From: Promethearchaeota archaeon
Lineage (GTDB): Archaea; Asgardarchaeota; Lokiarchaeia; Sigyniarchaeales; SOKP01
NCBI GenBank assembly: GCA_016839745.1
Contig: JAEOTS010000025.1
Coordinates: 14,413 to 78,412, forward strand
Direction of reading: 5' to 3'
DNA: 64,000 bases
The notes under the pieces were generated by a model, which was given only the letters and a program-made list of their open reading frames with translations, was not told where the DNA came from and made no database searches. The position numbers were made by a program, and so were the translations under genes. Positions 9,151 to 32,581 of the stretch are shown piece after piece (the stretch's first letter is position 1; every line of letters begins with the position of its first letter).

Positions 9151-9873
9151 TTGGATTTAATTACTACTTATTTAAGTTTTCCTTATGAAAAAATTGATGA
9201 TGCGAATAGAATATTCATAGAAACAGTACAGAAAAATCTGATAGATCCTGATTTATTCGAAAAAAAACCCATACAACCAGTGATGATATGGTATTCAGAA
9301 GATTATGTTATAATTACTTCTATACTTGAAGTGAAGGAAGGTAAGCTTAAAGAGGCTTTTAATTTTCTTGATATTAGAAAAAAGTGGTGGCCTCTAGAGG
9401 AAGGGTATAAAGTAGATGCTTGGGTGTCACCTCAAAGTGGAAAAACAAGGCCTACTTTTTTTGGAGAAAAGTATTTGATCTTTGTAAGCTACGCAACAAA
9501 AGATGCTCAAACCTTTAAAATTAATGAATTCGCCAAAAAATTAAAAGGCTTTCCAGAAATTAAGAAAGTTCTTTATTGGCAGGAACATATGCAGGATAAC
9601 ATCTTTAAGTTTATGAATGATAATCTAGGAAAATGTGACATAATGTTGTTATTTTGTTCAAAGAACGCGCTAAACTCCAAACCTGTTGAGAAGGAATGGA
9701 CAGCAGCCGAAGCAATTGGTGTTCCAATTATTCCAATATTTATTGATACAGATCATATTCCTCCCCTTCTTAAATCAAGATTAGGTATTGAATATGATAT
9801 TAATGATATAGATAAAAATATTCGAGATTTGCGTACTTTAATCTTAAAAAAGATTAAAGGAGTATCAGACTAA
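9151..9873 (+). CDS. Soluble TIR-domain protein with a small N-terminal domain resembling 52059..52367
   Basis: IFVSYA...LLFCSKNALNSKPVEKEW...IIPIF TIR motifs; TTG start after GAGGGAG. Confidence 0.85.
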   Translation: MDLITTYLSFPYEKIDDANRIFIETVQKNLIDPDLFEKKPIQPVMIWYSEDYVIITSILEVKEGKLKEAFNFLDIRKKWWPLEEGYKVDAWVSPQSGKTRPTFFGEKYLIFVSYATKDAQTFKINEFAKKLKGFPEIKKVLYWQEHMQDNIFKFMNDNLGKCDIMLLFCSKNALNSKPVEKEWTAAEAIGVPIIPIFIDTDHIPPLLKSRLGIEYDINDIDKNIRDLRTLILKKIKGVSD

Positions 9874-16031: not shown

Positions 16032-16631
16032 ATGGTGGAAAATAAGAATTTGCTTTTAGGAATCTGTGGAAGTCCCAGAAAACAAGGAACTGCTTATGCC
16101 GTTGAATATGCCTTGACTTACGCTTCCGAAAAATTTGAGTTTGACACTGAATTCTGGACAGTAAGAGGAAAGGAAATCAAGTATTGCACGCACTGCGACT
16201 ATTGTATTAGAGAGAAAAAAGGATGCATAAATGAAGATGATGTTCAAAAACTTTATCATATGTTAGAAGAAGCCAAATTTTTGCTCATAGGTACACCGGT
16301 GTTTCAAGGTAATCTTTCAGGGCAACTCAAAACTATATTAGATCGCTGTCGTGGATTAGTCGCTAAAAATCCTAATGTTTTTAAGGGTAAATATGGAATT
16401 GCGCTTGCAGTGGGGGGAGATCGAAGCGGAGGGCAAGAAATTGCGATTAGAAGCGTTTTAGATTTCTACCAACAAAATCATATAATATCCGTTTCGGGTG
16501 GTGCGTTTGGAGCTAATTTGGGTGCTTCTTTATGGAGTAGGGATAATGGCAAGGAAGGAGTTCAAAAAGATCAAGAGGGATTAAAAACAATTAGGAAAGT
16601 CATAAAAAGATTAGCAGAGTTTAAAGAATAG
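16032..16631 (+). CDS. Iron-sulfur flavoprotein (Isf), intact copy
   Basis: GSPRK, CTHCDYC...C, GTPVF, LKTILDR, GGDRSGGQE. Confidence 0.92.
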   Translation: MVENKNLLLGICGSPRKQGTAYAVEYALTYASEKFEFDTEFWTVRGKEIKYCTHCDYCIREKKGCINEDDVQKLYHMLEEAKFLLIGTPVFQGNLSGQLKTILDRCRGLVAKNPNVFKGKYGIALAVGGDRSGGQEIAIRSVLDFYQQNHIISVSGGAFGANLGASLWSRDNGKEGVQKDQEGLKTIRKVIKRLAEFKE

Positions 16632-16955
16632 AAAAGAAAAATAATTGTACTTATTGTACCCTATTTAACTCCAAAGAGTTTCTTAGCTTCTTTTTCTCTG
16701 AGTCCTGAGATACCCCAGAGCTCTTTAAACCAATATTTTCCATCCATAATTACAACTGGCGTATTTACAATACACCCATCTGCGTCACAGAAAGTTTTGG
16801 TGAAATTTTTATCGTGTAACAGCTTATGAACGAATTCTTCGTCGTCTATATCATGTTCTATATACTCGACATTGTGTTTGCGGCCAATCTTTCAATTCTG
16901 TACATCTTGAGCAATCAGTTTTTGATATTATTATTGGAATTTGCATTTTTGACAT
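16201..16955. repeat. Diverged direct repeat, copy 1 (isf 3' part plus grx); copy 2 at 30562..31318
   Basis: Colinear nucleotide similarity including the intergenic TAGAAAAGAAAAATAAT; differences mostly at third codon positions. Confidence 0.92.
16661..16955 (-). pseudogene. Frameshifted glutaredoxin-like gene (paralogue of 31022..31318)
   Basis: 295 nt versus 297 nt; 2-nt deletion near 16883 after MSKMQIPIIISKTDCSRCTELKDW gives an early TGA. Confidence 0.88.
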
Positions 16956-17158: not shown

Positions 17159-20100
17159 TTATTTAAAGAATTTGTTGCCTCTTGACCGCATAATCTCTTG
17201 ATAAAGATTCTTGATAAAAATATTAAATTGTTTTTTATCATATTTAACATTCAAGAAGTGTCCTAATATGGTTGGAATGTCATCCAATTTTTCATAAACA
17301 GGAATAATTGTAATTAAATCCTTTTTCCTTTTTTCGAATGCTACTTGCCATTCATCTTTTACAGAAGCTGATTTCATAGAATTTTCACTACAAAATAACA
17401 CAAATACATCATATTCTTTGAGCGTTTCATCCATAAATTCCGTATAATCTGCAACTTTTTGTGCTTTATCCGATTCCCAATACATTACTTTATCAATCTC
17501 TGGGTATTCTTCTAAACTTTTTATAACACTTAAAATTTGGAAGTGATCAATATCCAGAGTAGAATAACTTATGAAAATATTAAGCTCTTTGAATTTCTCA
17601 GGCAATAATTTAGAAACTATAGCTTTTGGTTTTATTTCTTGAGAGCGAACTTCTTCTAATAGAAGGTCCGAATCATCCCTGTCAAGATTTAGCATCTCCC
17701 ATTCTCTATAAATTTTTATGAATTGTTTAATTTGTTCGATATTCGATTGTTTGTCAAAAGCAACTGCTTTCGATTTTGAAAAGTATTCACCATTAATCTC
17801 ATTATTTTGAATCATTTCTTGTAAGACTTCAATAATGAAATCATCATCACTTATTCCAGTTTGTTCACTAATGTCAGTTATTTCTAATCTCGCAAATTTT
17901 GTAGCTAAATTTAAAACAATTCTTTTTATTATATTAATCATTTCTAAATGTTTACTATTACATTGAGTGATTTTTTCATCACATTCGTTTAACATTTCGA
18001 ATAGACCATATACTTTGCATAAATCTTTGATTTCTTCAAGGTCTTTCAGTGCATCTTTTACACTTTTTTCCTCTATCAGATGATCAACAGTTAACAACCT
18101 ATTATGAAGTTTTTGTTCGATTTTAATTTTCTTTTTGTCATATACTTTTATTTCTCTTCCTTTTTTTGGAATAATTACTCTCTTCCGAACAACTACGAAA
18201 CTTACTCCAGCTATACTAATTATACTAACAACAGTCATAATGATTACAATTAAATAATCTGGTTTCGTTATTACAGTATTTCCTTGAAATGTATTTCCAA
18301 AACTATCTTCCTCAACATAAGCTTCATCATTTAAGTAGAAATAATTTTCAGTTATTGAATTATTGTTAGATTGTTTAAAGAATAATCCGAATTGATTACT
18401 TCCTAGGAAACTTCCACTGATGATGTTACTGTGACTCAATAATAGATAAATACCCCAACGGTTATAACTTATTGTTTCTGTATTGTTTATAATGGAAATC
18501 AAACGACTTTCATTCAAGAAAATACCCGCTAACTTATTATGGTTCATATTACTTTCTAATATCGTGATATTCTCACAATCGTATAAACATACTCCATGTC
18601 CATTATTATTCGAGCAATCCAGATTAATTAATATAGCATTAGAAACATGCTCTAATTTAAGTCCTGCATCATTAAATCCTCCACCTGAGTTATGTAAAAT
18701 ACTATATCTTACAATGAAAAACGCAATAGAATTTCTAATTATTAAATTACTTCCAGTATTCTGACCATCAATTACTAAAAATTCAATAATATATGGATCA
18801 TTCCAAGTGCCTGAACCAAAGCACCACTCTTGAGCTTCTGCTTGATCCCAAGTGTAATTACCTGCACCAGTATCGTCAATAGTAGTAGTTTCCAAAACAA
18901 CATAATCTGGGACTTTTTTAATAGATACATTTTGATAGCCGATATTTCCTACCAAATCAGCAGCATAAAAATGAATAAAAATTGTTTCAATCGGACCAGT
19001 AATAAAATTATCCCAAAGCCCTTGATCTATCTTTCCTGTTAAATCTGAAAAAGTATAATTACCTGTTATATATGTATCGTTAGATAGGGAATACCATGTG
19101 AGATCTAAATTTCCCTCAGTGATAGAAAGATTAAATTCAGGACTACTTAGTTGAAATGTCTCGTCTAATATTGGATTATGAATTGTAATCACTGGTATTT
19201 CGATATCTTTCCCAACCATTATATCCATAAAGCTTAAAGTCCCTAAAGTATTATTTGCGTAAAATCTTATTATTACTGTTCCGTTTCCTAGAGCATCCCA
19301 TTCAGCCTGATCTATAGTACCATTAGCTATAAATGTAATATTTGTGAGTCCTCCATCAAGTGTATACCACATCGAATCTATGCCATTAACATTAGATATT
19401 TCTACATTAAAAATCGGAGGATTGTACCTAAATAAACTATTAGTAATTGGTGTATTTATTAAAATGGTTGGACCTGATAAAATATCTTTCCTGACCACAA
19501 TTGAATTGGAGGCTAGATTCCCTAGGGTGTCATTCCCATAGAAAGTGATTGTTACTGTTCCATTTACTTGAGCATCCCATTCTGTCTGGTCTATGGAGCC
19601 ATTAGTTATAAATATAATATTTGTGAGCCCGCCATCAAGCGTATACCACATCGTGTCAATACCATTAATAGCAGTTATTATCACATTGAAATTTGGCGCA
19701 AGAATTCCAAAAAGTTCATTAAGAATTGGAGATATGATGAAGATGTTTGGCAATTGGATATCCTTCCTAACCACAACAGAATTAGAGGCTAAATTCCCAA
19801 CGGTATCATTTGCATAGAAAGTTATAGTTACAGTACCATTTGCTTGATTATCCCATTCAATTGGATCTATGGTACCATTGATTGTAAATGTAATATTTAT
19901 GAACCCGCCATCAAGCGTGTACCACATCATATCCACACCATTGATATCCGAGATTTCTACATTAAAAGTGGGGGGGAGAGGTCCAAAGAGCTCATTTGGT
20001 ATAGGTGAATTAATGGTAATATTCGGAATTTCGATATCTTTTCGAACTACTACGGAATTAGAAGCTATATTCCCTAAGGTATCGTTTGCGTAGAAAATTA

Positions 20101-23100
20101 TGGTAACGGTTCCATTTGATAGAGCATCCCATTCTGTCTGATCAATTGTCCCATTAGTTATAAATGTAATATTGGTTATACCTCCATCAAGTGTATACCA
20201 CATTGTATCTACAATATTAATAGCAGTTATTTCTACATTATAGTTCGGAGAAGTATACCCAAACAAGTTATTTGAAGCTGGAGTATTTATTAAAATGGTT
20301 GGACCAGATAAAATATCTTTCCTAACTACTAAAGAATTGGAAGCTAGATTCCCTAGGGTGTCATTCCCATAGAAAGTGATGGTTACAGTTCCATTCCCTT
20401 GAGCATCCCATTCTGTCTGATCTATTGTTCCATTAGCTATAAATGTTATATTAGTTAAACCTCCATCAAGTGTATACCACATTGTATCTATTCCGTTGAT
20501 ATCCGAAATTTCCACAGTAAAATTTGGTGCAAGGGCTCCAAAGAGCTCGTTTGGAAGGGGGAAATTAATGATAATATTTGGTAATTCGATATCCTTACGT
20601 ACTACAACAGAACTAGAAGCTAAATTCCCAACGGTATCATTTGCATAGAATATGATGGTAAGAGTTCCATTTGATTGAGCATCCCATTCAGTCTGGTCTA
20701 TGGTACCATTGGTTATAAATGTAACATTAGTTATACCTCCGTCAAGCGTATACCACATTGCACCTATTCCATTGATATCGGTAATTTCTACAGTAAAAGA
20801 TGGCGCAAGAGATCCAAAGAGCTCATTTGGTAAAGGTGAAATAATGTTAATATTAGGAACTTCGATATCCTTCCGAACTACAACAGAACTAGAGTCAAAA
20901 TTTCCAATGGTATCATTAGCATAGAATGTGATGGTAACAGTCCCATTTGATTGAGCATCCCATTCTGTCTGATCAATGGTTCCATTGGTTATAAATGTAA
21001 TATTCGTGAGCCCGCCATTAAGTGTATACCACATTGTATCTATTCCATTGATATCAGCAATTTCTACAGTAAAAGTTGGTGCAAGAGATCCAAAGAGCTC
21101 ATTTGGTAAAGGAGAAATAATAAAAATATTAGGAGCTTCGATATCCTTCCGAACTACAACAGAATTAAAGGCTAGATTTCCTAGGGTGTCATTCCCATAA
21201 AAAGTTATGGTTATGGTTCCATTCCCTTGAGCATCCCATTCGATCTGATCAATGTTCCCGTTAGCTATAAACGTGATATTTATGAGCCCGCCATCAAGTG
21301 TATACCACATCGTATCTATTCCGTTGATATCCGTAATTTCAACGTTAAAAGTTGGTGCGATAACTCCAAAGAGCTCATTAGGAAGAGGTGAATTTATGAT
21401 AATATCTGGCAATTCGATATCTTTCCTAACAATTACAGAATTAGAAGCTAAATTCCCAATAGTATCATTTGCATAGAAATTGATCGTAACGGTACCATTT
21501 ACCCGATTATCCCATTCTGTCTGATCAATGGTCCCATTGGTTATAAATGTAATATTCGTGAGCCCGCCATCAAGTGTATACCACATTGTATCTATTCCAT
21601 TGATATCCGAAATTTCTACTGAAAAAATTGGCGCCAGGGATCCAAAGAGCTCATTAGGAAGAGGTGAATTTATGAAAATATCTGGCAATTCGATATCTTT
21701 CCTAACAATTACAGAATTAGAAGCTAAATTCCCAACGGTATCATTTGCATAGAATGTGATGGTAACAGTTCCATTTGATTGAGCATCCCATTCAGTCTGG
21801 TCTATAGTACCATTGGTTATAAATGTAATATTCGTGAGCCCGCCATCAAGTGTATACCACATTGTATCTATTCCGTTGATATCGGTAATTTCCACAGTAA
21901 AGGTTGGTGCAAGAGATCCAAAAAGCTCATTTGGTAAAGGAGAAATAATAAAAATATTAGGAAGTTCGATATCTTTCAGAATTACAACAGAATTAAAGGC
22001 TAGATTTCCTATGGTATCATTCGCATAAAAATTTATAGTTAGGGTGCCATTTCCTTGAGCATCCCATTCAGTCTGGTATATAGTACCATTGGTTATAAAT
22101 GTAATATTCGTGAGCCCGCCATCAAGTGTATACCACATTGTATCTATTCCGTTGATATCCGTTATTTCAACATTAAAAGTTGGTGCAATAACTCCAAAGA
22201 GCTCATTTGGAAGAGGTGAATTTATGATAATATTTGGTAGTTCGATATCTTTCCTAACTGCTACTGAATTAAAGGCTAGGTTTCCAATAGTATCATTTGC
22301 ATAGAAAGTGATCGTAACGGTACCATTTACCCGATTATCCCATTCTGTCTGATCAATGGTTCCATTAGCAATAAATGTAATATTTGTGAGGCCTCCATCG
22401 AGTGTATACCACATCATATCTATTCCATTGATATCCGAAATTTCTACATCAAACGATGGCGCAAGAGACCCAAAGAGCTCATTTAGTAAAGGTGAATTAA
22501 TATTTATATCTGGTATTTCGACGTCCTTCCGAACTACAACAGAATTAGAAGCTAAATTCCCAACGGTATCATTTGTATAGAAAATGACGGTAATCGTTCC
22601 ATTTACTTGATTATCCCATTCAATTTGGTCTATGGTACCATTGGTTATAAATGTAATATTAGTTAAACCTCCGTCAAGCGTGTACCACATTACATCTATT
22701 CCGTTGATATCAGTAATTTCCACAATATAAGTTGGCGTTAGGACTCCGAAAAGTTCATTTGATAAAGGAGAAATAATAATAATATCTGGCGCTACGATAT
22801 CTTTCCTAACTAAAACAGCAGCAGAGGCCAGCTTTCCAAGTGTACCATTCACATAGAAAGTAATTAATACTGTTCCATTTGCTAATTTATTCCATTCAAT
22901 CTGATCAATAGTCCCATTAGCTATAAATGTAATATTTGTGAGACCACCATCAAGCGTATACCACATTGTATCTACGCCATCTGTATCGTTTATTTCTACA
23001 TTAAAATTTGGAGAAGTGATCCCAAATAAACTGTTTGAAATCGGCGCATTTATTACAACAGTTGGAACCGATTCAATTCCATCATCCCATATTGGAAAAT

Positions 23101-26100
23101 TATCTTGACTTCCTGCGGTACCAGGTATTAAATATGGACTATCTCCTATTCCATCATCATTTGCATCTACTCCTCCATAATCATCCCAATAATTACCAAT
23201 AGTTCCATTATCCCAATCATTATTCGTTCCATTATCGAGTGCGTTGATACCATTTCCTATAATTAAATTATTAAAAATTAAAGAATAATTAGCTTCTGTT
23301 AAAAAAAATCCATAATTAATAGTATTATTTATGGTGTTTCCCGAAATAACATTATCAATATTTTCGAATAAATATATTCCATAGAGGTCATAGTTATTTA
23401 CTATATTATTCGAGATTATGTTACTACTACTATTAAGAAGTATTCCTATCCCAAAACCAGTTGGAAACCAGTTGGAATTAATGGTGTTTCCTGTAATACT
23501 GTTATTATTACTATACAATGAAACTATCCCAAAGTTGTTACTATTTAAGGTGTTTCCTGTAATGTTATTATTATTACACTCGCTTATCCATATACCATAA
23601 TAGTTTCCTGAAATCGAGTTGTTTCCTGAAATTGAGTTATTTACACTCCTTCCCAGGTATATCCCACGAGAATTATTTGAACAATTGTTTCTTGTAGATA
23701 GTGAATTAGTAACATTAACCAATTCAATCCCCGCTCTTGTTGAATTGAATACAGTACAATTTTCAATTCTAAAATATACATCAGAATTTTCAATGTAAAT
23801 ACAACTAACCGAATTGTTTTGAGCATTAATTGCTAAATCTTCTATTACATAAGGATCCGAACTTGTACCCTGTCCAGTACACTTTCCTGCATCTTTAAAA
23901 TATTGCCACTCTTGATTACCCTCTAAATAAATAGTCTGTGGAGCTATTGCACTGTCCTGTGTCACATCATAAAAGCTTAATATCCCCAACGCATTCGATT
24001 GAAATCCAAGAATATGACTTCGATAGGCGTCATAATTATACGGAATACAACCATATGCCCATGGCATATCATCTTCAACTAAAAGTTGTTGGATTCTTTC
24101 GTAAAATACTTTCCTTGCATTTGGATCAGTTTCGAATAATGCTGCTTCCATTAAAAGCTGCACATTGGCCCAAGGATCAAATGGATCTCTACCCGCTCCC
24201 ATTGCTGCTGTATAACCATTATATTGAACTCCATTATATGCGATAGATCTATTAGTGAAATGTGGGTTGATATAATTGCTTGGATCAACATAATCAGGAC
24301 CCCATCCCATCCAAAAGAGTTCCAGCATATTTCTTGTATAGGGAGGAATTTCAACCAATCTATAAAAATAATCCGTCCAGGTCATGCCCTCATCAGTAAC
24401 TTCGATTCCTATTTTATCAAGATTATTTTGCAATAAAGGTAAAATATTTTCGCGAAGGGTGTTACCTATATTATAAGTATAATTGAAAGTGCGGAATGAT
24501 GCGGCAGACCATAGAGCCTCATCCATTCCGGGGTAATTTGCGTCCCATCCTATTCCAAAGCCCATACTTTGCATGATTTCTCTAGCTTGTGTTATGTTGT
24601 ATATTGCAACATCAAAGGACCAATTGGCGTAGGGCATATTTTCAGGTATAGGCGACTTTAATCTTACGGCATTTCCTCCATATAATTCATCAATAATGTA
24701 AGAGTAGTTTATTGCATACGAAATTGCTTTTCGCCATGTATTATTAATAATTTGATTATTCATACCGAGATATTGAACAATCATGCTTTGTCCAGCGTTA
24801 AATAACGTAATATCGGGATCAGCATCAAAAGTTGAAAACATTGAAGTCAATGGATCAACCAGTAAGTCAACTTCACCTGATAACAGTGCGTTATTTCTGT
24901 CTACTGCATCTGGAATAATGGAAAATTTAAGGATGGAAACATTGGCTTTTCCTGCCCAGTAATTCTCAAAAGCGTGAAACTTTACTTCATTATCAGGTAA
25001 ATAATGATCATAAACAAACGGACCTGTCCCTATTAAATCACCTGTAGTGGTATTAATAGCTGCAAATTGAGGTGTAGATATAGGAGATAGAATATATGAA
25101 CCAGGAAAGCACAATAAATTATCAAATACACCATAAGGTTTATTCAACTCGAATCTAATTGTATATTCATCTACAATTACAGTATCGTTAATAATAGGAA
25201 AATACATACTAACATCAGGATCATAATATTGATAAAGTTCAGCCGCATAAGCCATAGTATTATTTATGAAGTATGCTAACCTATCAAAAGAAAATTTTAC
25301 TGCAGTCGCGTTAAATTTAGTTCCATCGTGGAAAATTACATTAGACCTGAGAGAAACAGTGTACCATGTGTCTGTGGAATTGATCATCCATGTACCCATT
25401 GATGTTGCAAGATTTGGTATAACTGGTAAATTAGGATCCGATATTTTATATTTAAATAAACCCTCACACACTTGATATATTACATCAAATGATACTGTAT
25501 CATAAGCAACGTGAGGATCAAGATCAAATGGACCATAAGCAGTACCAAAAACAATTTTAAATATATCATCTCCTTGGTCGATCCCATCATCCCAAATTGG
25601 AAAGTTATCTTGACTTACTGTTGGGCCAGATATTGGATAAGATGTATCCCCCATTCCGTCATCATTTTCATCTACTCCTGGATAATCATCCCAAAAATTA
25701 CCAAGACTTCCATTATCCCATGAATTGCTAATCAAACTTTCAAAAGCATTGATATTATTTGAGATAAATGAATTGTTATAAATTAGAATGCTATTACTAT
25801 TATTTACATTCATTCCATATTGAACATTATTATTTACATTATTACCAGTGATGGTAAAGTTGGTATTAAGATTGAATAGATGTATCCCTACGCCGTTATT
25901 TGAACAATTGTTCCCAATTATTTGTCCATTACTAGCATTTAGCAATTTAATTCCTGCATCTGCAGAATTAAATAATGTACAATTTTCAATTCTAAAATAT
26001 ACCTCAGAATTTTCAATAAAAATACAACTAACAGATTCATTTTGGCCATCGATTACTAAATCTTCGATTACATAAGGATCAGAAATTGTGCCCTCTCCCG

Positions 26101-28018
26101 TGCATTTACTTGCGTTTTTAAAATATTGCCATTCTTGATTACCATCTAAATATATCGTTTGTGGGGCAATCGCACTATTTTGGGTAACACCACGAAAATC
26201 TAAAATTTCCATAGCGTTCGATTGAAATCCAAGAATACGGCTCCGATAGGCATCATAATTGCGCGTGACGAAACAAAATGCCCATGGCATATCTTCTTCT
26301 ACAAGAATTTCTTGAATCCTATTGTAATATGATTCTCTTATATTTTGATTGGTTTCGAATAATGCTGCTTCCATTAAAAGTTGTACATTATCCCATAGAT
26401 TAAACGGATCTCTACCAGATTCTATCGCTGCCCAATAGCCATTATACATACCATTATTCCAACTACTAAGATCAAGTGTTCTATTGGTTAACATACTATT
26501 GATATAATTACTTGGGTCATTATAGTCATGCCCCCAACCCATCCAGAAGAGTTGCAGCATCTTCCAGCCATCCACTCCTAAAATAAACAATCTATCTAGA
26601 TATTCTGACCAGGTCATACCAGCATCAGTAACTTCGATACCAATTTTATCAAGATTATTTTGTAATAAAGGTAAAATATCTTCTCGAAATGAGTTGCCTA
26701 TATTATAGGTATAATTGTAAGTCTCGAATGATGCGGCAGACCATAGAGCCTCATCACTTCCGGGATAAGTTGTATCCCAAGCTACTCCAAAACCCATACT
26801 TTGCATTATTTCTCTTGCTTTAGAAACATTATATGTTGCTACATCAAGCGACCAGTTAGCGAATATTATACTTTCAGGAAGAGGAGACTCTAATCTCAGT
26901 GCGTTTCCTTCACGTAATTCATTAAGAATATAAGAATAGTTAATAGCATAAGAAATTGCGTTTCTAAAAGTAACATTGATATAATAATTACTCATTACAA
27001 GAGGCGAAATTACTGTCCCCTGTCCAGCGTCAATTAACGTAATATCAGGATCAGCATCAAGAGTAGAAAACATTGAGGAATATGGATTAAGTATTAAGTC
27101 GACTTCACCTGATAACAATGCGTTGTTTCTGTCTACTGCATCTGGAATAATGGAAAATTTAAGGATTGTAATATTTGCTTTTCCTGCCCAATAATTCTCA
27201 AAAGCGTGAAATTTTACTTCATCATCGGGTATATAATGGTCATAAACAAACGGCCCTGTACCGACTAGAGTTCCAGTAGTGATATTAATATACTCAAATT
27301 GAGGTGTAGATGTGGGAGATAAAATATATGATCCAGGAAAGCATAATAATGCCTCGAATGGTCCATATGGCTTATTCAACTCGAATCTAATTGTATATTC
27401 ATCGATAATAACAGTGTCACTAATAATAGGGAAAGTAGTTCCGAGATCAGGATCAAAATATTCATAAAGTGTAGCTGCGGTAGCCATAGAATTATTTATA
27501 AAATATTTTAACCTTTCAAAAGTAAATTTTACTGCTGTTGCGTTAAATTTAGTTCCATCGTGAAAAATCACATTAGGTCGAAGGGACACGGTATACCATG
27601 TGTCTGTAGAATTAATCATCCATGTACCTTTTGATGTTGCTAAACGGGGTATAATCTGTAAATTTTGATCGGTTAAATTGTATGTGAATAAACCTTCGCA
27701 AACTTGATCTATCACATTATATGAATTAGAATCCCAAGAGTTTTGAGGATCAAGATCATATGGACCAGCCTGAGTACCAAATACTAACTTAAATATATTA
27801 TTATCTTGATTACTAGAGTTGAGATCTTTATCGTAAGAAATTAGTCCCTCTCTAGTTTTAGCATTTATATTTATATTCGAATTTATTATGAAATTTGAAA
27901 AAAATATAATTAAGAGGAAAAATAAAATTAAAACTCGTTTTAATTTCTTATTGAATTTTATTGAATATGATTTACCTTTTATATTCCTATATAGACGAAT
28001 ATTGACTTTGGATTTCAT
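17159..28018 (-). CDS. Giant transmembrane TIR receptor-like protein: signal/TM - SBP5 - NosD beta-helix - SBP5 - NosD - 15 Ig-like repeats - NosD - TM - PCI-like - TIR
   Basis: Two LRxNVIFHDGTKFNATAVKF / GTGPF SBP family-5 signatures; GNYWDDY...D beta-helix caps; WYTLDGG repeats; TM YLIVIIMTVVSIISIAGVSFVVV followed by RKR; IFISYS...VLFCSENS...VKDEW TIR. Confidence 0.9.
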   Translation of the reverse strand: MKSKVNIRLYRNIKGKSYSIKFNKKLKRVLILFFLLIIFFSNFIINSNININAKTREGLISYDKDLNSSNQDNNIFKLVFGTQAGPYDLDPQNSWDSNSYNVIDQVCEGLFTYNLTDQNLQIIPRLATSKGTWMINSTDTWYTVSLRPNVIFHDGTKFNATAVKFTFERLKYFINNSMATAATLYEYFDPDLGTTFPIISDTVIIDEYTIRFELNKPYGPFEALLCFPGSYILSPTSTPQFEYINITTGTLVGTGPFVYDHYIPDDEVKFHAFENYWAGKANITILKFSIIPDAVDRNNALLSGEVDLILNPYSSMFSTLDADPDITLIDAGQGTVISPLVMSNYYINVTFRNAISYAINYSYILNELREGNALRLESPLPESIIFANWSLDVATYNVSKAREIMQSMGFGVAWDTTYPGSDEALWSAASFETYNYTYNIGNSFREDILPLLQNNLDKIGIEVTDAGMTWSEYLDRLFILGVDGWKMLQLFWMGWGHDYNDPSNYINSMLTNRTLDLSSWNNGMYNGYWAAIESGRDPFNLWDNVQLLMEAALFETNQNIRESYYNRIQEILVEEDMPWAFCFVTRNYDAYRSRILGFQSNAMEILDFRGVTQNSAIAPQTIYLDGNQEWQYFKNASKCTGEGTISDPYVIEDLVIDGQNESVSCIFIENSEVYFRIENCTLFNSADAGIKLLNASNGQIIGNNCSNNGVGIHLFNLNTNFTITGNNVNNNVQYGMNVNNSNSILIYNNSFISNNINAFESLISNSWDNGSLGNFWDDYPGVDENDDGMGDTSYPISGPTVSQDNFPIWDDGIDQGDDIFKIVFGTAYGPFDLDPHVAYDTVSFDVIYQVCEGLFKYKISDPNLPVIPNLATSMGTWMINSTDTWYTVSLRSNVIFHDGTKFNATAVKFSFDRLAYFINNTMAYAAELYQYYDPDVSMYFPIINDTVIVDEYTIRFELNKPYGVFDNLLCFPGSYILSPISTPQFAAINTTTGDLIGTGPFVYDHYLPDNEVKFHAFENYWAGKANVSILKFSIIPDAVDRNNALLSGEVDLLVDPLTSMFSTFDADPDITLFNAGQSMIVQYLGMNNQIINNTWRKAISYAINYSYIIDELYGGNAVRLKSPIPENMPYANWSFDVAIYNITQAREIMQSMGFGIGWDANYPGMDEALWSAASFRTFNYTYNIGNTLRENILPLLQNNLDKIGIEVTDEGMTWTDYFYRLVEIPPYTRNMLELFWMGWGPDYVDPSNYINPHFTNRSIAYNGVQYNGYTAAMGAGRDPFDPWANVQLLMEAALFETDPNARKVFYERIQQLLVEDDMPWAYGCIPYNYDAYRSHILGFQSNALGILSFYDVTQDSAIAPQTIYLEGNQEWQYFKDAGKCTGQGTSSDPYVIEDLAINAQNNSVSCIYIENSDVYFRIENCTVFNSTRAGIELVNVTNSLSTRNNCSNNSRGIYLGRSVNNSISGNNSISGNYYGIWISECNNNNITGNTLNSNNFGIVSLYSNNNSITGNTINSNWFPTGFGIGILLNSSSNIISNNIVNNYDLYGIYLFENIDNVISGNTINNTINYGFFLTEANYSLIFNNLIIGNGINALDNGTNNDWDNGTIGNYWDDYGGVDANDDGIGDSPYLIPGTAGSQDNFPIWDDGIESVPTVVINAPISNSLFGITSPNFNVEINDTDGVDTMWYTLDGGLTNITFIANGTIDQIEWNKLANGTVLITFYVNGTLGKLASAAVLVRKDIVAPDIIIISPLSNELFGVLTPTYIVEITDINGIDVMWYTLDGGLTNITFITNGTIDQIEWDNQVNGTITVIFYTNDTVGNLASNSVVVRKDVEIPDININSPLLNELFGSLAPSFDVEISDINGIDMMWYTLDGGLTNITFIANGTIDQTEWDNRVNGTVTITFYANDTIGNLAFNSVAVRKDIELPNIIINSPLPNELFGVIAPTFNVEITDINGIDTMWYTLDGGLTNITFITNGTIYQTEWDAQGNGTLTINFYANDTIGNLAFNSVVILKDIELPNIFIISPLPNELFGSLAPTFTVEITDINGIDTMWYTLDGGLTNITFITNGTIDQTEWDAQSNGTVTITFYANDTVGNLASNSVIVRKDIELPDIFINSPLPNELFGSLAPIFSVEISDINGIDTMWYTLDGGLTNITFITNGTIDQTEWDNRVNGTVTINFYANDTIGNLASNSVIVRKDIELPDIIINSPLPNELFGVIAPTFNVEITDINGIDTMWYTLDGGLINITFIANGNIDQIEWDAQGNGTITITFYGNDTLGNLAFNSVVVRKDIEAPNIFIISPLPNELFGSLAPTFTVEIADINGIDTMWYTLNGGLTNITFITNGTIDQTEWDAQSNGTVTITFYANDTIGNFDSSSVVVRKDIEVPNINIISPLPNELFGSLAPSFTVEITDINGIGAMWYTLDGGITNVTFITNGTIDQTEWDAQSNGTLTIIFYANDTVGNLASSSVVVRKDIELPNIIINFPLPNELFGALAPNFTVEISDINGIDTMWYTLDGGLTNITFIANGTIDQTEWDAQGNGTVTITFYGNDTLGNLASNSLVVRKDILSGPTILINTPASNNLFGYTSPNYNVEITAINIVDTMWYTLDGGITNITFITNGTIDQTEWDALSNGTVTIIFYANDTLGNIASNSVVVRKDIEIPNITINSPIPNELFGPLPPTFNVEISDINGVDMMWYTLDGGFINITFTINGTIDPIEWDNQANGTVTITFYANDTVGNLASNSVVVRKDIQLPNIFIISPILNELFGILAPNFNVIITAINGIDTMWYTLDGGLTNIIFITNGSIDQTEWDAQVNGTVTITFYGNDTLGNLASNSIVVRKDILSGPTILINTPITNSLFRYNPPIFNVEISNVNGIDSMWYTLDGGLTNITFIANGTIDQAEWDALGNGTVIIRFYANNTLGTLSFMDIMVGKDIEIPVITIHNPILDETFQLSSPEFNLSITEGNLDLTWYSLSNDTYITGNYTFSDLTGKIDQGLWDNFITGPIETIFIHFYAADLVGNIGYQNVSIKKVPDYVVLETTTIDDTGAGNYTWDQAEAQEWCFGSGTWNDPYIIEFLVIDGQNTGSNLIIRNSIAFFIVRYSILHNSGGGFNDAGLKLEHVSNAILINLDCSNNNGHGVCLYDCENITILESNMNHNKLAGIFLNESRLISIINNTETISYNRWGIYLLLSHSNIISGSFLGSNQFGLFFKQSNNNSITENYFYLNDEAYVEEDSFGNTFQGNTVITKPDYLIVIIMTVVSIISIAGVSFVVVRKRVIIPKKGREIKVYDKKKIKIEQKLHNRLLTVDHLIEEKSVKDALKDLEEIKDLCKVYGLFEMLNECDEKITQCNSKHLEMINIIKRIVLNLATKFARLEITDISEQTGISDDDFIIEVLQEMIQNNEINGEYFSKSKAVAFDKQSNIEQIKQFIKIYREWEMLNLDRDDSDLLLEEVRSQEIKPKAIVSKLLPEKFKELNIFISYSTLDIDHFQILSVIKSLEEYPEIDKVMYWESDKAQKVADYTEFMDETLKEYDVFVLFCSENSMKSASVKDEWQVAFEKRKKDLITIIPVYEKLDDIPTILGHFLNVKYDKKQFNIFIKNLYQEIMRSRGNKFFK
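18915..23065 (-). repeat. Intragenic tandem array of about 276-bp (92-aa) Ig-like repeats: 14 close copies plus 1 divergent
   Basis: 14 MWYTL(D/N)GG units and one LTWYSLSND unit; antisense ORFs recur every 276 nt. Confidence 0.93.
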
Positions 28019-28100
28019 TTTATCAAATTATGTCTTTGTATAGAAAGAATTGAAGTCTTGGAATTCTTTTAGAATCAATATTAACTAAATATATAATGAC

Positions 28101-28148
28101 TAATGATAAATAGGATGTTCATCTTTTTAAGACTTTATCTTTTTGACA
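28101..28148 (-). promoter_or_regulatory. Conserved upstream element of TIR receptor gene 1
   Basis: 48-nt block with 3 mismatches to 30191..30238, at nearly the same distance from the MKSKVN start. Confidence 0.65.
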
Positions 28149-28231
28149 TTTTATTCTAAATTTATTATTTTAAAAACGGTTATTGAAATAACTTAAGAAT
28201 CTAGTATATATTTTTAATAGAAACTTTATAT

Positions 28232-30109
28232 TTAAGCGATTATCTCGGGAATTCTTCTGCCCTTTGAGCGCATAATCTCCTGATAAAGTTCGGTGGTAAA
28301 ACTATTAAAATCAGTTTTATCATATTTAACATTTAAAAAGTGACCTAATATTACTGGAATGTGTTCGGCTTGTTCATAAACTGGAATAATTGTAACTAAT
28401 CCCTTTTTCCTTCTCTGGAATGCTGCTTGCCACTCATCTCTTACAGAAACGGATTTCATGGAGTTTTCACTACAAAATAAAACAAACACATCGCAATTTT
28501 CAAGCATTTTATCCATATATTCTACAATATTTTGTGTACTATCCGCCTCCCAATACATTACTTTGTTAATATCTGGGTATTCTTCTAAACTTTTTGCAAC
28601 TCGTGATATCTGAAAATGATCTGTATCTATAGTGGAATAACTTAAAAAGACATTAAGATCTTTGAATTCATCAGGTTTAGACTTAGAAATTATTGCTTTC
28701 GATCTTAATTCCCGAGGTAGAATCTCTTCTATTAGAAAGTCCGAATCATCCCTATCAAGGTTATTTTTCTCCCATTCTCCGTACGTTTTTATGAGGTTCT
28801 CAATTTGTTCGATATTCGATTGTTGATCAAAATTAATTCTTTTTGAAAAGTATTCAGCATATACCTCATTATTTTGAATCATATCTTCTATAACTTCAAT
28901 AATGAAATCTTCATCATTTATTCCAGTTTTTTCACTAATATCAGTTATTTCTAATCTCGCAAATTTAGTAGCTAAATTTATCACAATTCTTTTAATTATA
29001 TTAATCATCTCTAAGTACAAATAATTACAATGTTCAATTTTTTCATCACAATCGTTTATCATTTCAAATAGACCATATACGTTGCATAAATCCTTAATCT
29101 CTTCCAGATTTTTGAGAGCCTCTTTTACATTTTTTTCCCTTATCAAGTAGTCAATAAAGGATAACCTATCATGAAGATTTTCTTCGACTTTAATTTTTGT
29201 TTTTCCGTCTACTTTCACTTCTCCTCTTTTTTTAGGAATAATTACTCTCTTCCAAATAGTTAGGATACTTACAGCGGATACACCAACTATAATAACGATA
29301 ATTATAATGGTTAAAAGTAATACATTAAATTTCGGTATTATTTCATTATTTTTAAAACTATTATTTTGACTATCTTCAAGATCATAAGCTTCATTATTTT
29401 CCATAAAGATATTTTCAATTATAGAATTATTGCTCGATTGCTTAAGAAATAATCCTAATTGATTATATCCTATAAAGTTTCCACTGATGTTGTTATTATG
29501 ACTCATTAAGAGAAAAATACCCCTTACCTTATTATTGTTCAGATCACTTTCTAATATAGAAATATTCTGAGAGTTATCCAAACAAACCCCATGGTCTTTG
29601 TTGTTTGAGCAATCTATATTAATTAATTTACCATTTGAAACATTTACTAATTTAACTCCCGCATCATTAGCTCCTCCACCAGAATTATAGAAAATACTAT
29701 CTCTTATAATGAAAAACACACTAGAATTTCTAATTATTAAACAACTTGCACCATTCTGACCATCAATTTCTAAGGATTCAATAATATAAGGATCATTCCA
29801 AGTACCAGAGCCATTACACCATTCTTGAGCTTGTGCTTGAGTCCAAGTGTAATCTCCTTCTCCAGTATCGTCAATAATCATCGATTCTGAAATATAATTA
29901 TCTGATACTTTAATAATAGAAACATCTTGAGATCCAATATCCTTATTATATGGCAATTGATTGAGTCTAATTGTGAAAATTAAGCAGAATAATACCAAGA
30001 TGAAAAATAGTAATGAAACTCTCTTTAAAGTTAAATTTTTATTTGAATTAATTGAAACTGAATTTTTACTTTTATCCTTAGAGACACTAGCATTAACTTT
30101 AGATTTCAT
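28232..30109 (-). CDS. Short transmembrane TIR receptor-like protein: TM - NosD beta-helix - TM - PCI-like - TIR
   Basis: Paralogue of the C-terminal ~550 aa of 17159..28018; start moved to ATG 30109 (MKSKVN, as in the paralogue); TIR VFLSYS...SVRDEWQAA. Confidence 0.9.
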   Translation of the reverse strand: MKSKVNASVSKDKSKNSVSINSNKNLTLKRVSLLFFILVLFCLIFTIRLNQLPYNKDIGSQDVSIIKVSDNYISESMIIDDTGEGDYTWTQAQAQEWCNGSGTWNDPYIIESLEIDGQNGASCLIIRNSSVFFIIRDSIFYNSGGGANDAGVKLVNVSNGKLINIDCSNNKDHGVCLDNSQNISILESDLNNNKVRGIFLLMSHNNNISGNFIGYNQLGLFLKQSSNNSIIENIFMENNEAYDLEDSQNNSFKNNEIIPKFNVLLLTIIIIVIIVGVSAVSILTIWKRVIIPKKRGEVKVDGKTKIKVEENLHDRLSFIDYLIREKNVKEALKNLEEIKDLCNVYGLFEMINDCDEKIEHCNYLYLEMINIIKRIVINLATKFARLEITDISEKTGINDEDFIIEVIEDMIQNNEVYAEYFSKRINFDQQSNIEQIENLIKTYGEWEKNNLDRDDSDFLIEEILPRELRSKAIISKSKPDEFKDLNVFLSYSTIDTDHFQISRVAKSLEEYPDINKVMYWEADSTQNIVEYMDKMLENCDVFVLFCSENSMKSVSVRDEWQAAFQRRKKGLVTIIPVYEQAEHIPVILGHFLNVKYDKTDFNSFTTELYQEIMRSKGRRIPEIIA

Positions 30110-30306: not shown

Positions 30307-30561
30307 TAAGATTCTAAATCAGGGGTTTTAGATAACAAATAATTGTAAACATCAGTAATTTCGTCCTTAAAGTAGGCGGCTCTAATCATATAAATTATCA
30401 TTAAGAGTTCTTTTCCTCCCCGCGCTAATTCTGATTCAATATAAAAAATGTGATTAATTGTTTGGTACTTTCTAAAAGTAAATATAAAAATTCCTTCTTC
30501 CTCAGTGAATTCTAGAATTCTACCTAAATCTGGATGTTCTTGAGTATTTAATGGGGAACTA
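30307..30561 (-). pseudogene. Internal fragment of the uDENN-GTPase gene (copy of about 32257..32513)
   Basis: Translates SSPLNTQEHPDLGRILEF...ARGGKELLM...LLSKTPDLES; no start codon, joined directly to the isf fragment. Confidence 0.9.
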
Positions 30562-30992
30562 ATTGTATTAGAGAAAAAAAAGGGTGCATTAATGAAGATG
30601 ATGAATAAAAACTTTATCGCATGTTAGAAGAAGCCAAATTTTTGCTTATAGGTACACCGGTATTTCAAGGTAGTCTTTCAGGGCAGCTAAAAACTGTATT
30701 AGATCGCTGTCGTGGATTAGTCGCTAAAAACCCTAATGTATTTAAGGGTAAATATGGAATTGCGCTTGCAGTGGGGGGAGATCGAAGCGGAGGTCAAGAA
30801 ATTGCGATTAGAGGCATCTTAGATTTTTACCAACAAAATCATATAATAACGATTTCTGGAGGCGCATTCGGAGCTAACTTGGGTGCCTCTTTATGGAGTA
30901 GGGATAGAGGTAAGGAAGGAGTTCAAAACGATGAAGTGGGATTAAGAACTATTAGGAAAGTCATAAAAAGATTAGCAGAATTTAAAGAATAG
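30562..30992 (+). pseudogene. 5'-truncated Isf copy
   Basis: Begins mid-gene (CIREKKGCINEDDE), in-frame TAA at 30606-30608, lacks the GSPRK loop and first Cys ligands. Confidence 0.88.
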
Positions 30993-31021
30993 AAAAGAAA
31001 AATAATAGTACTTATTCTAAC

Positions 31022-31318
31022 TTATTTTACTCCAAAGAGTTTCTTAGCTTCTTTTTCTCTGAGTCCGGAGATACCCCAGAGCTCTTTAAACCAATATTTT
31101 CCGTCCATTATTACAACTGGCGTATTTACAATACACCCATCTGCATCACAGAAAGTTTTGGTGAAATTTTTATCGTGTAATAACTTATGTGTGAATTCCT
31201 CGTCGTCTATATCACGTTCTATGTATTCGACATCGTGCTTATGAAGCCACTCTTTCAATTCTGCGCACCTATGACAATCAGTTTTTGATATTACTATTGG
31301 GACTTGCATTTTGCTCAT
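31022..31318 (-). CDS. Glutaredoxin/NrdH-like protein, intact copy
   Basis: CHRC active site, NTP cis-Pro region, extra CxxxGC insert. Confidence 0.85.
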   Translation of the reverse strand: MSKMQVPIVISKTDCHRCAELKEWLHKHDVEYIERDIDDEEFTHKLLHDKNFTKTFCDADGCIVNTPVVIMDGKYWFKELWGISGLREKEAKKLFGVK

Positions 31319-31452
31319 AATATTTATATCATAACTTCTCTCTGTAAAAAAAGTTTAGCTTCTAATCTATAAATAAGTACAAAAGAAATATGATAACAAA
31401 TCAAATTTACATGAAAATATATTATAAATCATACAAAATTTTCAATCTTAAA

Positions 31453-31474
31453 ATACTTCTTACTTAAGAAGTAT
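31453..31474. promoter_or_regulatory. Perfect 10-2-10 inverted repeat (operator or terminator)
   Basis: ATACTTCTTA-CT-TAAGAAGTAT, intergenic. Confidence 0.45.
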
Positions 31475-31537
31475 GATCTTTATTCCAGAAAGTGGAAGTC
31501 TCCGTATAAATAAGACAAGATTAAATTAAAATGATAA

Positions 31538-32581
31538 TTATATCATTTTTTTTAACAACCAACGAATTGCATTGATAATTTTATCATTTTCATTAAGAAC
31601 ATTAATAGAGAAATATTCTATAGATAGTCCACACTCTTCTAACTCCACCATGTTGAATTTCTCATAAATCATATTCGAGGTTATTTCCTCTTTATCGTCA
31701 AATTTATTGCCAATAATAAGTATTGGCATAGTATCTCCCTTATCCTGGCATCTATTTAATACCAACTGGAACATTTCAATGGTTTCTTTAATAGAGTCCT
31801 TAGTAGAGGCATTAAAGATTAAGATAAAGCCCTGAGCATTATCTATACAATCTTCATACAAACTAGTTCGTTCATCATCCGTATCCTCATCAATACATTC
31901 GTACGTCAAAACTTCGATGTTATCAATTATGAAGTCGTAAATTTTGCTAGATAAATCTCGCTTCATATTGTTATTTTTATATTGTAGGAATTGTATAACC
32001 TCCAAATTTTTAACGAGCTCTGTTTTTCCTGCGTTTCTAGGGCCAAAAATATAAATCTTCTTTAAATTTCCTTTATCTAATAAATGAGTCGTTAAATCTA
32101 GCTGTGGGCTCATTTTTTCTAGATATTTGTTGAAGAGCCTAAAGAATTCTTTTTTAAATTTTTTCGATGCTACGCTAAGAGTTTCTTTTTGATTTACACG
32201 ATTTTTATGGTTGTGTAGTACTTCTTTGAGTTCTCGAAGATTTTTGAGTTCTGAAGCGTAAGATTCGAGATCAGGGGTTTTAGATAACAAATAATTGTAA
32301 ACATCAGTAATTTCGTCTTTGAAGTAAGCGGCTCTAATCATAAAAGTTATCATTAAGAGTTCTTTTCCCCCTCGCGCAAATTCTGAGTCAATATAAAAAA
32401 TGTGATTAATGGTTTGATACTTCCTATAAGTAAAAATAAAATTTCCTTCTAGATCAGTGAAATCCAGAATTCTACCTAAATCGGGGTGCTCTTGGGTATT
32501 CAATGGGGAACTACAATACAAGTTAGTGGGTCCGAGAGTAGTGTCAAAATATGACACACAAAGGATAACCTCTTTTGGCAT
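31538..32581 (-). CDS. uDENN/longin-like domain fused to a Ras-superfamily small GTPase
   Basis: N-terminal YFDTTLGP...ARGGKE; GPRNAGKT P-loop, GFILIF, IGNKFD (G4). Confidence 0.75.
   Translation of the reverse strand: MPKEVILCVSYFDTTLGPTNLYCSSPLNTQEHPDLGRILDFTDLEGNFIFTYRKYQTINHIFYIDSEFARGGKELLMITFMIRAAYFKDEITDVYNYLLSKTPDLESYASELKNLRELKEVLHNHKNRVNQKETLSVASKKFKKEFFRLFNKYLEKMSPQLDLTTHLLDKGNLKKIYIFGPRNAGKTELVKNLEVIQFLQYKNNNMKRDLSSKIYDFIIDNIEVLTYECIDEDTDDERTSLYEDCIDNAQGFILIFNASTKDSIKETIEMFQLVLNRCQDKGDTMPILIIGNKFDDKEEITSNMIYEKFNMVELEECGLSIEYFSINVLNENDKIINAIRWLLKKMI

Follow-up and report, generated by a model that had tools for sequence, protein, structure and literature searches.

A putative surface receptor of Lokiarchaeia that joins peptide-transporter-type binding domains to an intracellular TIR domain, and its shorter partner

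To my knowledge, the characterised prokaryotic TIR (Toll/interleukin-1 receptor) systems sense infection inside the cell, and receptors passing an outside signal on to a TIR are a layout of animals. The fold of the solute-binding protein (SBP), or Venus flytrap, has been fused into sensors such as BvgS/EvgS, class C G-protein-coupled receptors, and natriuretic-peptide receptors. SBPs also serve as sensors through separate partners, as in DppA-Tap and CBP-ChiS (PMC8050422). Here I describe a gene that combines SBP domains and a TIR domain. It lies at positions 17159 to 28018, on the minus strand, of a 64,000-nucleotide stretch (the window, whose numbering is used throughout) of contig JAEOTS010000025.1 in assembly GCA_016839745.1. 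The host is a Promethearchaeota (Lokiarchaeia) archaeon, and its genome is a fragmented metagenome-assembled genome (MAG) estimated to be 89% complete. What is new is that this gene is the long half of a recombining receptor pair, that its SBPs come from the Dpp/Opp clade of its own lineage, and that its TIR domain has the catalytic Glu but no cyclising aromatic residue. The first-pass annotation of the window knew of no characterised protein with this architecture. In agreement, no paper on Asgard membrane TIR receptors was found in the open literature (most subscription papers lay outside its reach), and a survey of Asgard defence systems does not describe such receptors (PMC11291487).

The gene is a single stop-free open reading frame (ORF) of 3619 amino acids (aa) with zero N bases. 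From the N-terminus to the C-terminus, it encodes a hydrophobic N-terminus, an SBP5 domain, a beta-helix, a second SBP5 domain, a second beta-helix, 15 Ig-like repeats, a third beta-helix, a transmembrane (TM) helix, a PCI-like module, and a TIR domain with Glu at position 3556. The features are as follows.

28019..28150, minus strand: conserved promoter/leader, common to genes of the subfamily, with a TATA-like TTAAAAAG near 28130-28123 (alignment of 7 upstream regions; putative function)
17159..28018, minus strand: long receptor ORF, 3619 aa (independent 3673-aa homologue with identical domain order)
27866..27922, minus strand: N-terminal hydrophobic segment, aa 33-51, preceded by a basic region; putative signal peptide or uncleaved anchor (hydropathy)
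26174..27796, minus strand: SBP5 domain 1, aa 75-615 (Pfam, pocket-residue alignment)
25574..26161, minus strand: beta-helix block 1, NosD-like (Pfam)
23951..25564, minus strand: SBP5 domain 2, aa 819-1356, 71% identical to domain 1 and with the same pocket residues (Pfam, alignment)
23069..23938, minus strand: beta-helix block 2 (Pfam)
18896..23053, minus strand: 15 Ig-like repeats of about 92 aa each (repeat analysis; AlphaFold of the last two repeats)
18299..18874, minus strand: membrane-proximal beta-helix 3, homologous to the entire ectodomain of the short partner (AlphaFold and fold search)
18179..18250, minus strand: single TM helix (aa 3257-3275; nt 18250-18194) with an RKR stop-transfer (18187-18179) (hydropathy)
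17687..18145, minus strand: PCI-like helical hairpin and winged helix, aa 3292-3444 (sub-threshold Pfam match, AlphaFold, fold search)
17594..17677, minus strand: disordered linker, predicted local distance difference test (pLDDT) <50 (AlphaFold)
17183..17587, minus strand: TIR domain, aa 3478-3612, with a FISYST box, the E3556 codon at 17353-17351, Ser at E-4, and a 3-residue insertion in the BB-loop/alphaB region (Pfam, alignment, fold)

Across the whole 3619 aa, the hydropathy profile has only two segments of membrane length, aa 33-51 and aa 3257-3275. Pfam matched SBP_bac_5 twice (444 bits), by stretches spanning positions 2-364 of the 368 positions of the PF00496 model, which are complete domains. 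It also matched NosD/beta-helix and TIR_2 (aa 3481-3591, 40 bits, above the cut-off), while the PCI match (aa 3361-3422, 17.7 bits) was below the cut-off. The 15 repeats have a period of 91-93 aa and a mutual identity of mostly 60-91%, the last one about 43%. In a fold search with the AlphaFold model of the last two repeats and beta-helix 3 (pLDDT 95), these repeats matched SiiE, CbhA FnIII-like, and cadherin domains, a bacterial-type Ig fold, and beta-helix 3 proved to be a right-handed beta-helix matching the polysaccharide-lyase type. The model of the cytoplasmic tail (pLDDT 82) consists of a helical hairpin, a winged helix, a disordered linker, and a TIR domain. Its PCI-like module matches a CSN subunit (Foldseek E 4e-4) and a proteasome subunit (Z 10.2, rmsd 2.0 over 71 residues). 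When the tail was searched as a single sequence against the PDB, there was no match; profiles and folds were required. The ectodomain has 115 sequons against 54 ± 6 in shuffles, and the cytoplasmic tail has none against 1.3 expected, which says little by itself. Sequons are in use on a surface SBP of Promethearchaeum syntrophicum (PMC11284389). Thus, the two SBP5 domains, three beta-helix blocks, 15 repeats, sequon-rich ectodomain, single TM helix with RKR, and PCI-like domain that the first-pass annotation had read from the letters were all recovered, its coordinates being correct to within about 10 nt.

Is this gene real? A homologue of 3673 aa from another metagenome has the same domain order, a similar repeat number, and 72-78% identity. 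Misassembly was ruled out because this independent assembly carries the same architecture; in addition, there is no exact repeat of 100 nt or more inside the gene. The dN/dS ratio is 0.13-0.44 in every folded domain against four or five relatives, and the PCI-like region has the lowest ratio of the protein in two comparisons (0.13 and 0.20). Seven genes of the subfamily share about 130 nt of conserved upstream DNA, including the TATA-like element. A scan for sigma-70 promoters stayed at chance level, the sigma-70 model being unsuited to archaea. The long receptor gene is real and maintained, and all of its folded domains are under purifying selection.

The gene next upstream encodes a shorter paralogous receptor, which the first-pass annotation had overlooked.

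28232..30109, minus strand: short partner receptor, about 625 aa from the homologous ATG, with a hydrophobic N-terminus, beta-helix, TM, PCI-like module, and TIR domain with a canonical BB loop (homology; the same short-then-long order at L051 and L064)

The tails of the two genes are 64-68% identical. The short-then-long order recurs in a same-genus genome (649 aa and 1877 aa, the latter with one SBP and four repeats) and also beside the 3673-aa homologue. In all, the pair was found at three unrelated loci whose neighbours differ each time, and a fourth locus has a three-gene array including a repeat-free SBP receptor. In genome G019, the pair has collapsed to a single chimeric gene. This gene resembles the short gene at its 5′ end, while the rest has 95-97% identity to the long gene and 77-86% to the short one; the loss of the ectodomain by recombination is directly visible here. 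Relatives have 0, 4, 15, or 26 repeats and 0, 1, or 2 SBPs. The ectodomain is the variable part, and the stalk length is not fixed. These results show that the long receptor is the long half of a receptor pair which is kept at three loci and reshuffled by recombination. A natural short form, an SBP-beta-helix-TM-PCI-TIR receptor of 1195 aa, exists at L045. The same locus has a short receptor (L045:7756-9608) that stops early within its TIR by an apparent frameshift, beside an SBP receptor that is intact and combines a long-type TIR core with a short-type C-terminus.

A locus scan of 185,579 species genomes, using patterns that favour close relatives, yielded 54 loci, all of which are Asgard or 'uncultured archaeon'; the same patterns found no family member in viral contigs. 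The named homologues belong to Promethearchaeota and other Asgard bins. The TIR subfamily comprises at least 401 sequence clusters (50% identity, E <1e-30). The best 150 of the 401 include 45 single-pass proteins that carry a large ectodomain, 20 multi-TM proteins, 10 with tandem TIRs, and about 60 that are either soluble or partial. The family ectodomains include SBP5, Peripla_BP_6, beta-helices, Ig and PKD repeats, and WD40. In the 45 single-pass relatives, sequons number 3.4 per 100 aa on the ectodomain side versus 0.23 on the TIR side, and K/R residues 5.0 after the TM versus 0.9 before it. Because of these sequon and positive-inside biases, a family-wide placement of the TIR inside and the ectodomain outside is supported, as had been assumed for this receptor. 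The family is patchy (25 of the 36 same-genus genomes). Of the seven subfamily TIRs encoded by the source genome, two are single-pass, one is multi-TM, and four are soluble, fused to helical, TPR, WD40, and small domains. The window encodes, at 9151-9873 on the plus strand and 7 kb from the receptor, a soluble protein of 240 aa whose TIR belongs to the subfamily and groups with soluble and multi-TM TIRs, apart from the receptors. Proteins P0185-P0193 and P0018 consist of TIR domains of this subfamily, two to four in tandem. At L047:13417-15582, a soluble LRR-PCI protein, whose PCI resembles the receptor module, is encoded convergently with an SBP5-TM-PCI-TIR gene.

What may the SBP domains bind? 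The structures closest to both are those of DppA/HbpA (E 1e-28 to 1e-33), the match to E. coli OppA is weaker (3e-6), and MppA was not among the listed matches. Residues Y114, W386, M403, G404, W405, and D408 of DppA correspond to Y187, W470, M493, G494, W495, and D498 of SBP domain 1 and are kept in both SBPs. In DppA, D408 binds the amino terminus of the ligand (PMC3295651). By this alignment, the predicted site for the amino terminus of a peptide is intact, consistent with the peptide-binding role first assigned to these domains. Dipeptide specificity is not implied, since the R355 loop of DppA is not kept in either SBP. The DppA equivalog score is 209 bits against a cut-off of 1005, and the scores are far under every equivalog cut-off. 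The sensing of murein tripeptide, which had also been suggested, has no homology support in this set of matches.

The source of the SBPs could be traced. A stand-alone relative with about 49% identity belongs to a complete Lokiarchaeia Opp/Dpp operon. Contig C2 of the source genome carries orthologues of the permeases and ATPases of this operon at 61-72% identity, and the SBP there is cut off by the contig end. All trees are FastTree only, with rows picked by closeness to the query, and show clustering and repeated joins, not the direction of change. In the tree of 137 SBP domains, both receptor SBPs fall in a group of 19 rows (SH 97) inside a larger group with the operon SBPs; 13 of the 19 rows are TIR-linked, and most of the remaining rows are tailed or truncated. 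TIR-linked SBPs occur elsewhere in the tree too, with 7-8 label changes, and TIR is also joined to a second SBP class, Peripla_BP_6. To judge from these trees, TIR was joined to SBP5 several times. No ABC ATPase was found in the window, no permease (BPD_transp_1) on the contig, and no permease at the 54 related TIR loci, 13 of which have an SBP-TIR fusion. The derivation of the receptor SBPs from the lineage's own Dpp/Opp transporter clade is supported, and so is the earlier idea of a repurposed transporter-binding domain, with no permease or ATPase genes in the window.

Similar ectodomains are found on other tails. L014:2767-6186 (contig C26 of the source genome) and P0062, P0068, P0069, P0071, P0101, P0131, and P0152 have an SBP/beta-helix ectodomain and one TM, followed by a WD40, zinc-ribbon, or unidentified tail of 220-530 aa. 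Lokiarchaeia have a wider mix-and-match receptor platform, made from shared SBP/beta-helix ectodomains on varied tails. Two further single-pass proteins, of 1391 and 1238 aa, are encoded at L057:2422-6594 and L058:2653-6366 (contigs C113 and C160 of the source genome); their ectodomains are rich in sequons, and their cytoplasmic tails of 250 aa have no Pfam match. L062:3382-10473 has four stand-alone SBP5 genes in tandem with no permease within 7 kb.

The TIR fold best matches the NADases Cat1 (Z 15.1, rmsd 1.7) and SPARTA TIR-APAZ (top in Foldseek), tied with plant and animal TIRs. All 79 family TIRs in the alignment have the Glu of helix alphaC (E3556), which lines up with that of 9M0N and Cat1, and the FxSYxTxD first box is near-invariant. 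The retained Glu and the Cat1-like modelled fold suggest a TIR of the catalytic NADase type, as was first proposed. The E-4 position is A, S, or P in 77 of 78 family TIRs and Ser3552 in the long receptor (register checked against 9M0N). Cyclisation by TIRs requires an aromatic residue at E-4 (10.1101/2022.05.07.491051). Since this aromatic is missing, linear ADP-ribose is predicted to be the likelier product than the cyclic isomer. Cyclic ADP-ribose, for which an assay had been suggested, is an unlikely output, as the alphaC aromatic of the WxxxE pattern, known from cADPR-isomer producers (AbTir, type I ThsB, and plant TIRs), is missing here. Chemistry of another kind could be enabled by the Trp residues that the family conserves at E+1 and in strand betaB.

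Two kinds of candidate readers were found in the family at large. A RelA/SpoT-like nucleotidyltransferase-TPR-SLOG protein of about 860 aa flanks 12-13 of the 54 family loci; examples beside TIR receptors are L048:10011-12584, L053:12492-15211, and L054:5376-7091. No LSDAT_prok match was found in the 89%-complete source genome. A 2TM-Nudix protein (576 aa, with an intact Nudix box, an RDPR motif, and ADPR-type features) follows a WD40-TIR gene (1228 aa) on C89 of the source genome (L003:631-6242). The same order occurs in five more genomes, and the 2TM-Nudix gene faces membrane TIR receptors, including arrays, in three other genomes. Of the 25 genomes with a match to the tail, 15 have its closer paralogue type, against 1 of the 11 without such a match (nominal p 0.009); because the genomes are kin, this co-occurrence is only a hint. 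From these features, the 2TM-Nudix protein is a candidate ADP-ribose reader. It was considered as CorA-like, but no PF01544 match was found. In addition, a 526-aa helical protein of unassigned family lies beside TIR receptors at 8 of the 54 loci (e.g., L048:2849-4429). The source genome has this protein alone at C157:24081-25670, a site syntenic with the receptor cluster of G035, and about 9 kb from a multi-TM TIR gene.

Building on the anatomy, topology, conservation, pairing, and recombination seen here, I propose how binding, clustering, catalysis, and readout may proceed. It is quite possible, though I hold it tentatively, that the long receptor is a surface receptor which is clustered by multivalent peptide-bearing surfaces or polymers and so switches on its TIR NADase. 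Sequence and fold show a glycosylated ectodomain with two DppA-type clefts, then one TM helix, and the PCI-like module and the TIR inside. Each cleft would bind a peptide having a free amino terminus. Rather than a dissolved peptide, a multivalent ligand such as another cell, a protein particle, or a virion would act as the trigger by clustering the receptors laterally. Clustering is favoured because the closure of a cleft could hardly pass through 15 Ig repeats strung like beads, and because relatives tolerate any stalk length; if extended, the 15 repeats would measure an estimated 55-60 nm. The clustered PCI-like modules may gather the tails, probably with the short partner, which shares the membrane-proximal half, and the TIRs may assemble head to tail. 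To judge from the residues, NAD+ would be converted to nicotinamide and linear ADP-ribose, with no cyclic isomer. In the weakest step, ADP-ribose might be read or cleared by the ADPR-type 2TM-Nudix protein encoded elsewhere in the genome, or the loss of NAD+ might slow the cell. A stalk holding the SBPs off the cell surface requires that the putative signal segment is cleaved. If it stays uncleaved, the chain would be anchored at both ends with SBP1 at the membrane.

Several observations weigh against this clustering receptor. All long-type tails share the 3-residue BB-loop insertion and lose the NI motif of the family, with low pLDDT there; the insertion is missing from the short partners and from 167 of 170 motif-matching TIRs, and the NADase activity of AbTir needs the BB loop (10.1101/2022.05.07.491051). 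No reader gene is present at the receptor locus, where the short receptor gene and genes of the flavodoxin, glutaredoxin, and GTPase kinds are the neighbours. In the source genome, the Nudix link is one in trans, and the RelA/SpoT-TPR-SLOG gene was not found in the 89%-complete source genome and was absent from the G019 search too. The single chimeric gene of G019 means that the pair is not obligatory, and many family members have no PCI module. The receptor SBPs could feed the cognate Opp/Dpp operon on C2 in trans. Finally, among 122 related SBP5 proteins, 38 end shortly past the TM without a cytoplasmic domain and only 13 carry a TIR (33 are simple SBPs, 6 have a zinc ribbon, and 9 have another tail); thus, the ectodomain is useful without signalling.

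Other explanations draw on the same data. The receptor may be a nutrient sensor, in which dissolved peptides close the clefts, the closed SBPs dimerise or, if the N-terminus is anchored, act near the membrane, and a small dose of ADP-ribose is a metabolic second messenger rather than an alarm. The SBPs do come from the peptide transporter of the lineage, the neighbours are housekeeping genes with no defence island, and the scan for close relatives put no family member in viral contigs. A family-5 SBP is also the top-ranked protein of the Promethearchaeum syntrophicum proteome, for which its authors suggest chemoreception or transport (PMC11284389). However, the patchiness, arrays, relocation, and ectodomain swapping resemble recognition under conflict, and many family ectodomains have no SBP at all. 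I know of no SBP5 that dimerises on ligand binding, which was counted against this explanation, and I consider it unlikely. The receptor might instead be a surface scavenger or adhesin, whose SBPs capture peptides for an Opp/Dpp transporter elsewhere or tether the cell, with the PCI-TIR tail as a swappable anchor or localisation module that is independent of ligand. This would suit the occurrence of the SBP-beta-helix-Ig ectodomain with short, zinc-ribbon, WD40, and other tails, the operon on C2, and the likeness of the stalk fold to adhesin repeats. It seems rather improbable given that the tail is as constrained as the ectodomain, with near-invariant catalytic-site residues, that the SBP subclade is enriched in tailed proteins and the SBP-TIR joins recur independently, and that SBP domain 2 is about 1900 residues from the TM. 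An uncleaved N-terminal segment would help both of these explanations.

In a scaffold-type signalling like that of animal Toll-like receptors (TLRs) and the interleukin-1 receptor (IL-1R), the long TIR would be a poor enzyme that recruits the TIR of the short partner or the four soluble family TIRs, which would carry the output. The BB-loop insertion, confined to long-type tails beside a conserved partner with a canonical loop, fits well, as do the seven TIRs of one subfamily in the genome and the tandem-TIR proteins, which suggest homotypic assembly. Nevertheless, long-type TIRs retain E3556 together with the whole first box, the long-type tail of G019 has no partner, and no known downstream kinase or death-domain adaptor was seen; I regard such a scaffold as quite improbable. 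An assembly chimera of an SBP gene and a TIR gene joined across repeats, for which a fragmented MAG with 15 similar repeats gives grounds, is refuted in substance, the repeat count aside. Besides the 3673-aa homologue with the same order and the lack of exact repeats reaching 100 nt, repeat-free and four-repeat SBP-TM-TIR forms exist, and this explanation can be practically dismissed.

The pair sits within the first copy of a tandem duplication of parts of the flavodoxin, glutaredoxin, and GTPase genes, which includes the following features.

16201..16949: left copy of a 752-bp direct repeat (90%), with the flavodoxin-family gene intact and the glutaredoxin-like gene frameshifted (alignment)
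30309..31312: remnant of the neighbouring GTPase gene (aa 23-107, 88%; 30309-30563) and the right repeat copy (30562-31312) (alignment)

The duplication (16201-16955 and 30309-32581) decayed reciprocally; the left glutaredoxin-like copy is frameshifted, and the right flavodoxin-family copy is truncated.

The long receptor is a new combination of known principles. It is possible, if doubtful, that it belongs to an outside-in Asgard TIR pathway of a kind unknown in prokaryotes, with recombining arrays of surface receptors, an SBP receptor with a dedicated co-receptor, and peptide recognition leading to ADP-ribose from NAD+ and to a membrane Nudix or SLOG reader. If true, the lineage closest to eukaryotes would have arrived on its own at a Toll-like receptor layout, using parts of transporters. 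A family of at least 401 clusters, with about one-third of the best matches being single-pass receptors, would show that Asgard archaea evolved the receptor layout with an enzymatic TIR. The long receptor is unusually testable, with a sensor of a well-studied soluble binding class, a 335-residue tail, and natural short forms. Through it, one may learn how the slow-growing, syntrophic Lokiarchaeia detect partners, particles of food, or viruses.

How does the long receptor compare with known systems? It shares with IL-1R/TLR (including Hydra TRR-2) the type I single-pass layout, the glycosylated ectodomain, the cytoplasmic TIR, and possibly the pairing of receptor and co-receptor; its TIR fold matches IL-1RAcPb (Z 13.8) and Hydra TRR-2 (Z 13.4). 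In contrast, its putative sensor is an SBP, whereas IL-1R has three Ig-superfamily domains and TLRs have LRRs, and Pfam found no LRR or Ig-set in the long receptor. It also has an inserted PCI-like module and bacterial-type Ig spacers, and its TIR keeps the catalytic Glu, while the TIRs of TLRs are non-enzymatic (PMC11249213). Thus, the likeness to IL-1R drawn by the first-pass annotation stands for the layout but not for the Ig repeats, which are SiiE/FnIII/cadherin-like spacers numbering 0 to 26 in relatives. The likeness is probably an independent assembly, there being no sequence evidence of orthology.

Cat1, SPARTA TIR-APAZ, AbTir, and TIR-SAVED, which are oligomerisation-activated NADases, are the best structural matches with the same position of the catalytic Glu. 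They are cytoplasmic sensors of nucleic acids or nucleotides, while the archaeal receptor has its TIR anchored to the membrane, following an extracellular sensor, and has no WxxxE aromatic. As in Thoeris (ThsB TIR and effector, types I-XI), a TIR enzyme may signal to a separate reader, and some receptor-family loci do have a candidate for this role, either a SLOG protein (at 13 of 54) or a TM-Nudix protein. Unlike Thoeris, the receptor locus has no effector, the ThsB profile match is weak (E 1.7e-4), and the cyclising aromatic is absent; a preprint on Thoeris types V-XI does not mention Nudix or extracellular sensors (10.64898/2025.12.03.692087). The receptor SBPs resemble DppA/HbpA/GsiB-type SBPs in being full-length SBP5 domains with the amino-terminus-binding residues, but they are fused, have no permease nearby, and do not keep R355 of DppA. 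As in the flytrap receptors, a transporter binding fold would be reused to control a cytoplasmic enzyme; in the known fusions, however, the flytrap is near the membrane and allosteric, whereas the archaeal SBPs are up to 15 repeats away and the output is a TIR. The long receptor is thus not a member of IL-1R/TLR, Thoeris, the cyclase TIRs, or the ABC binding subunits. If it works at all, it would be like IL-1R/TLR in layout and like Cat1/SPARTA in chemistry.

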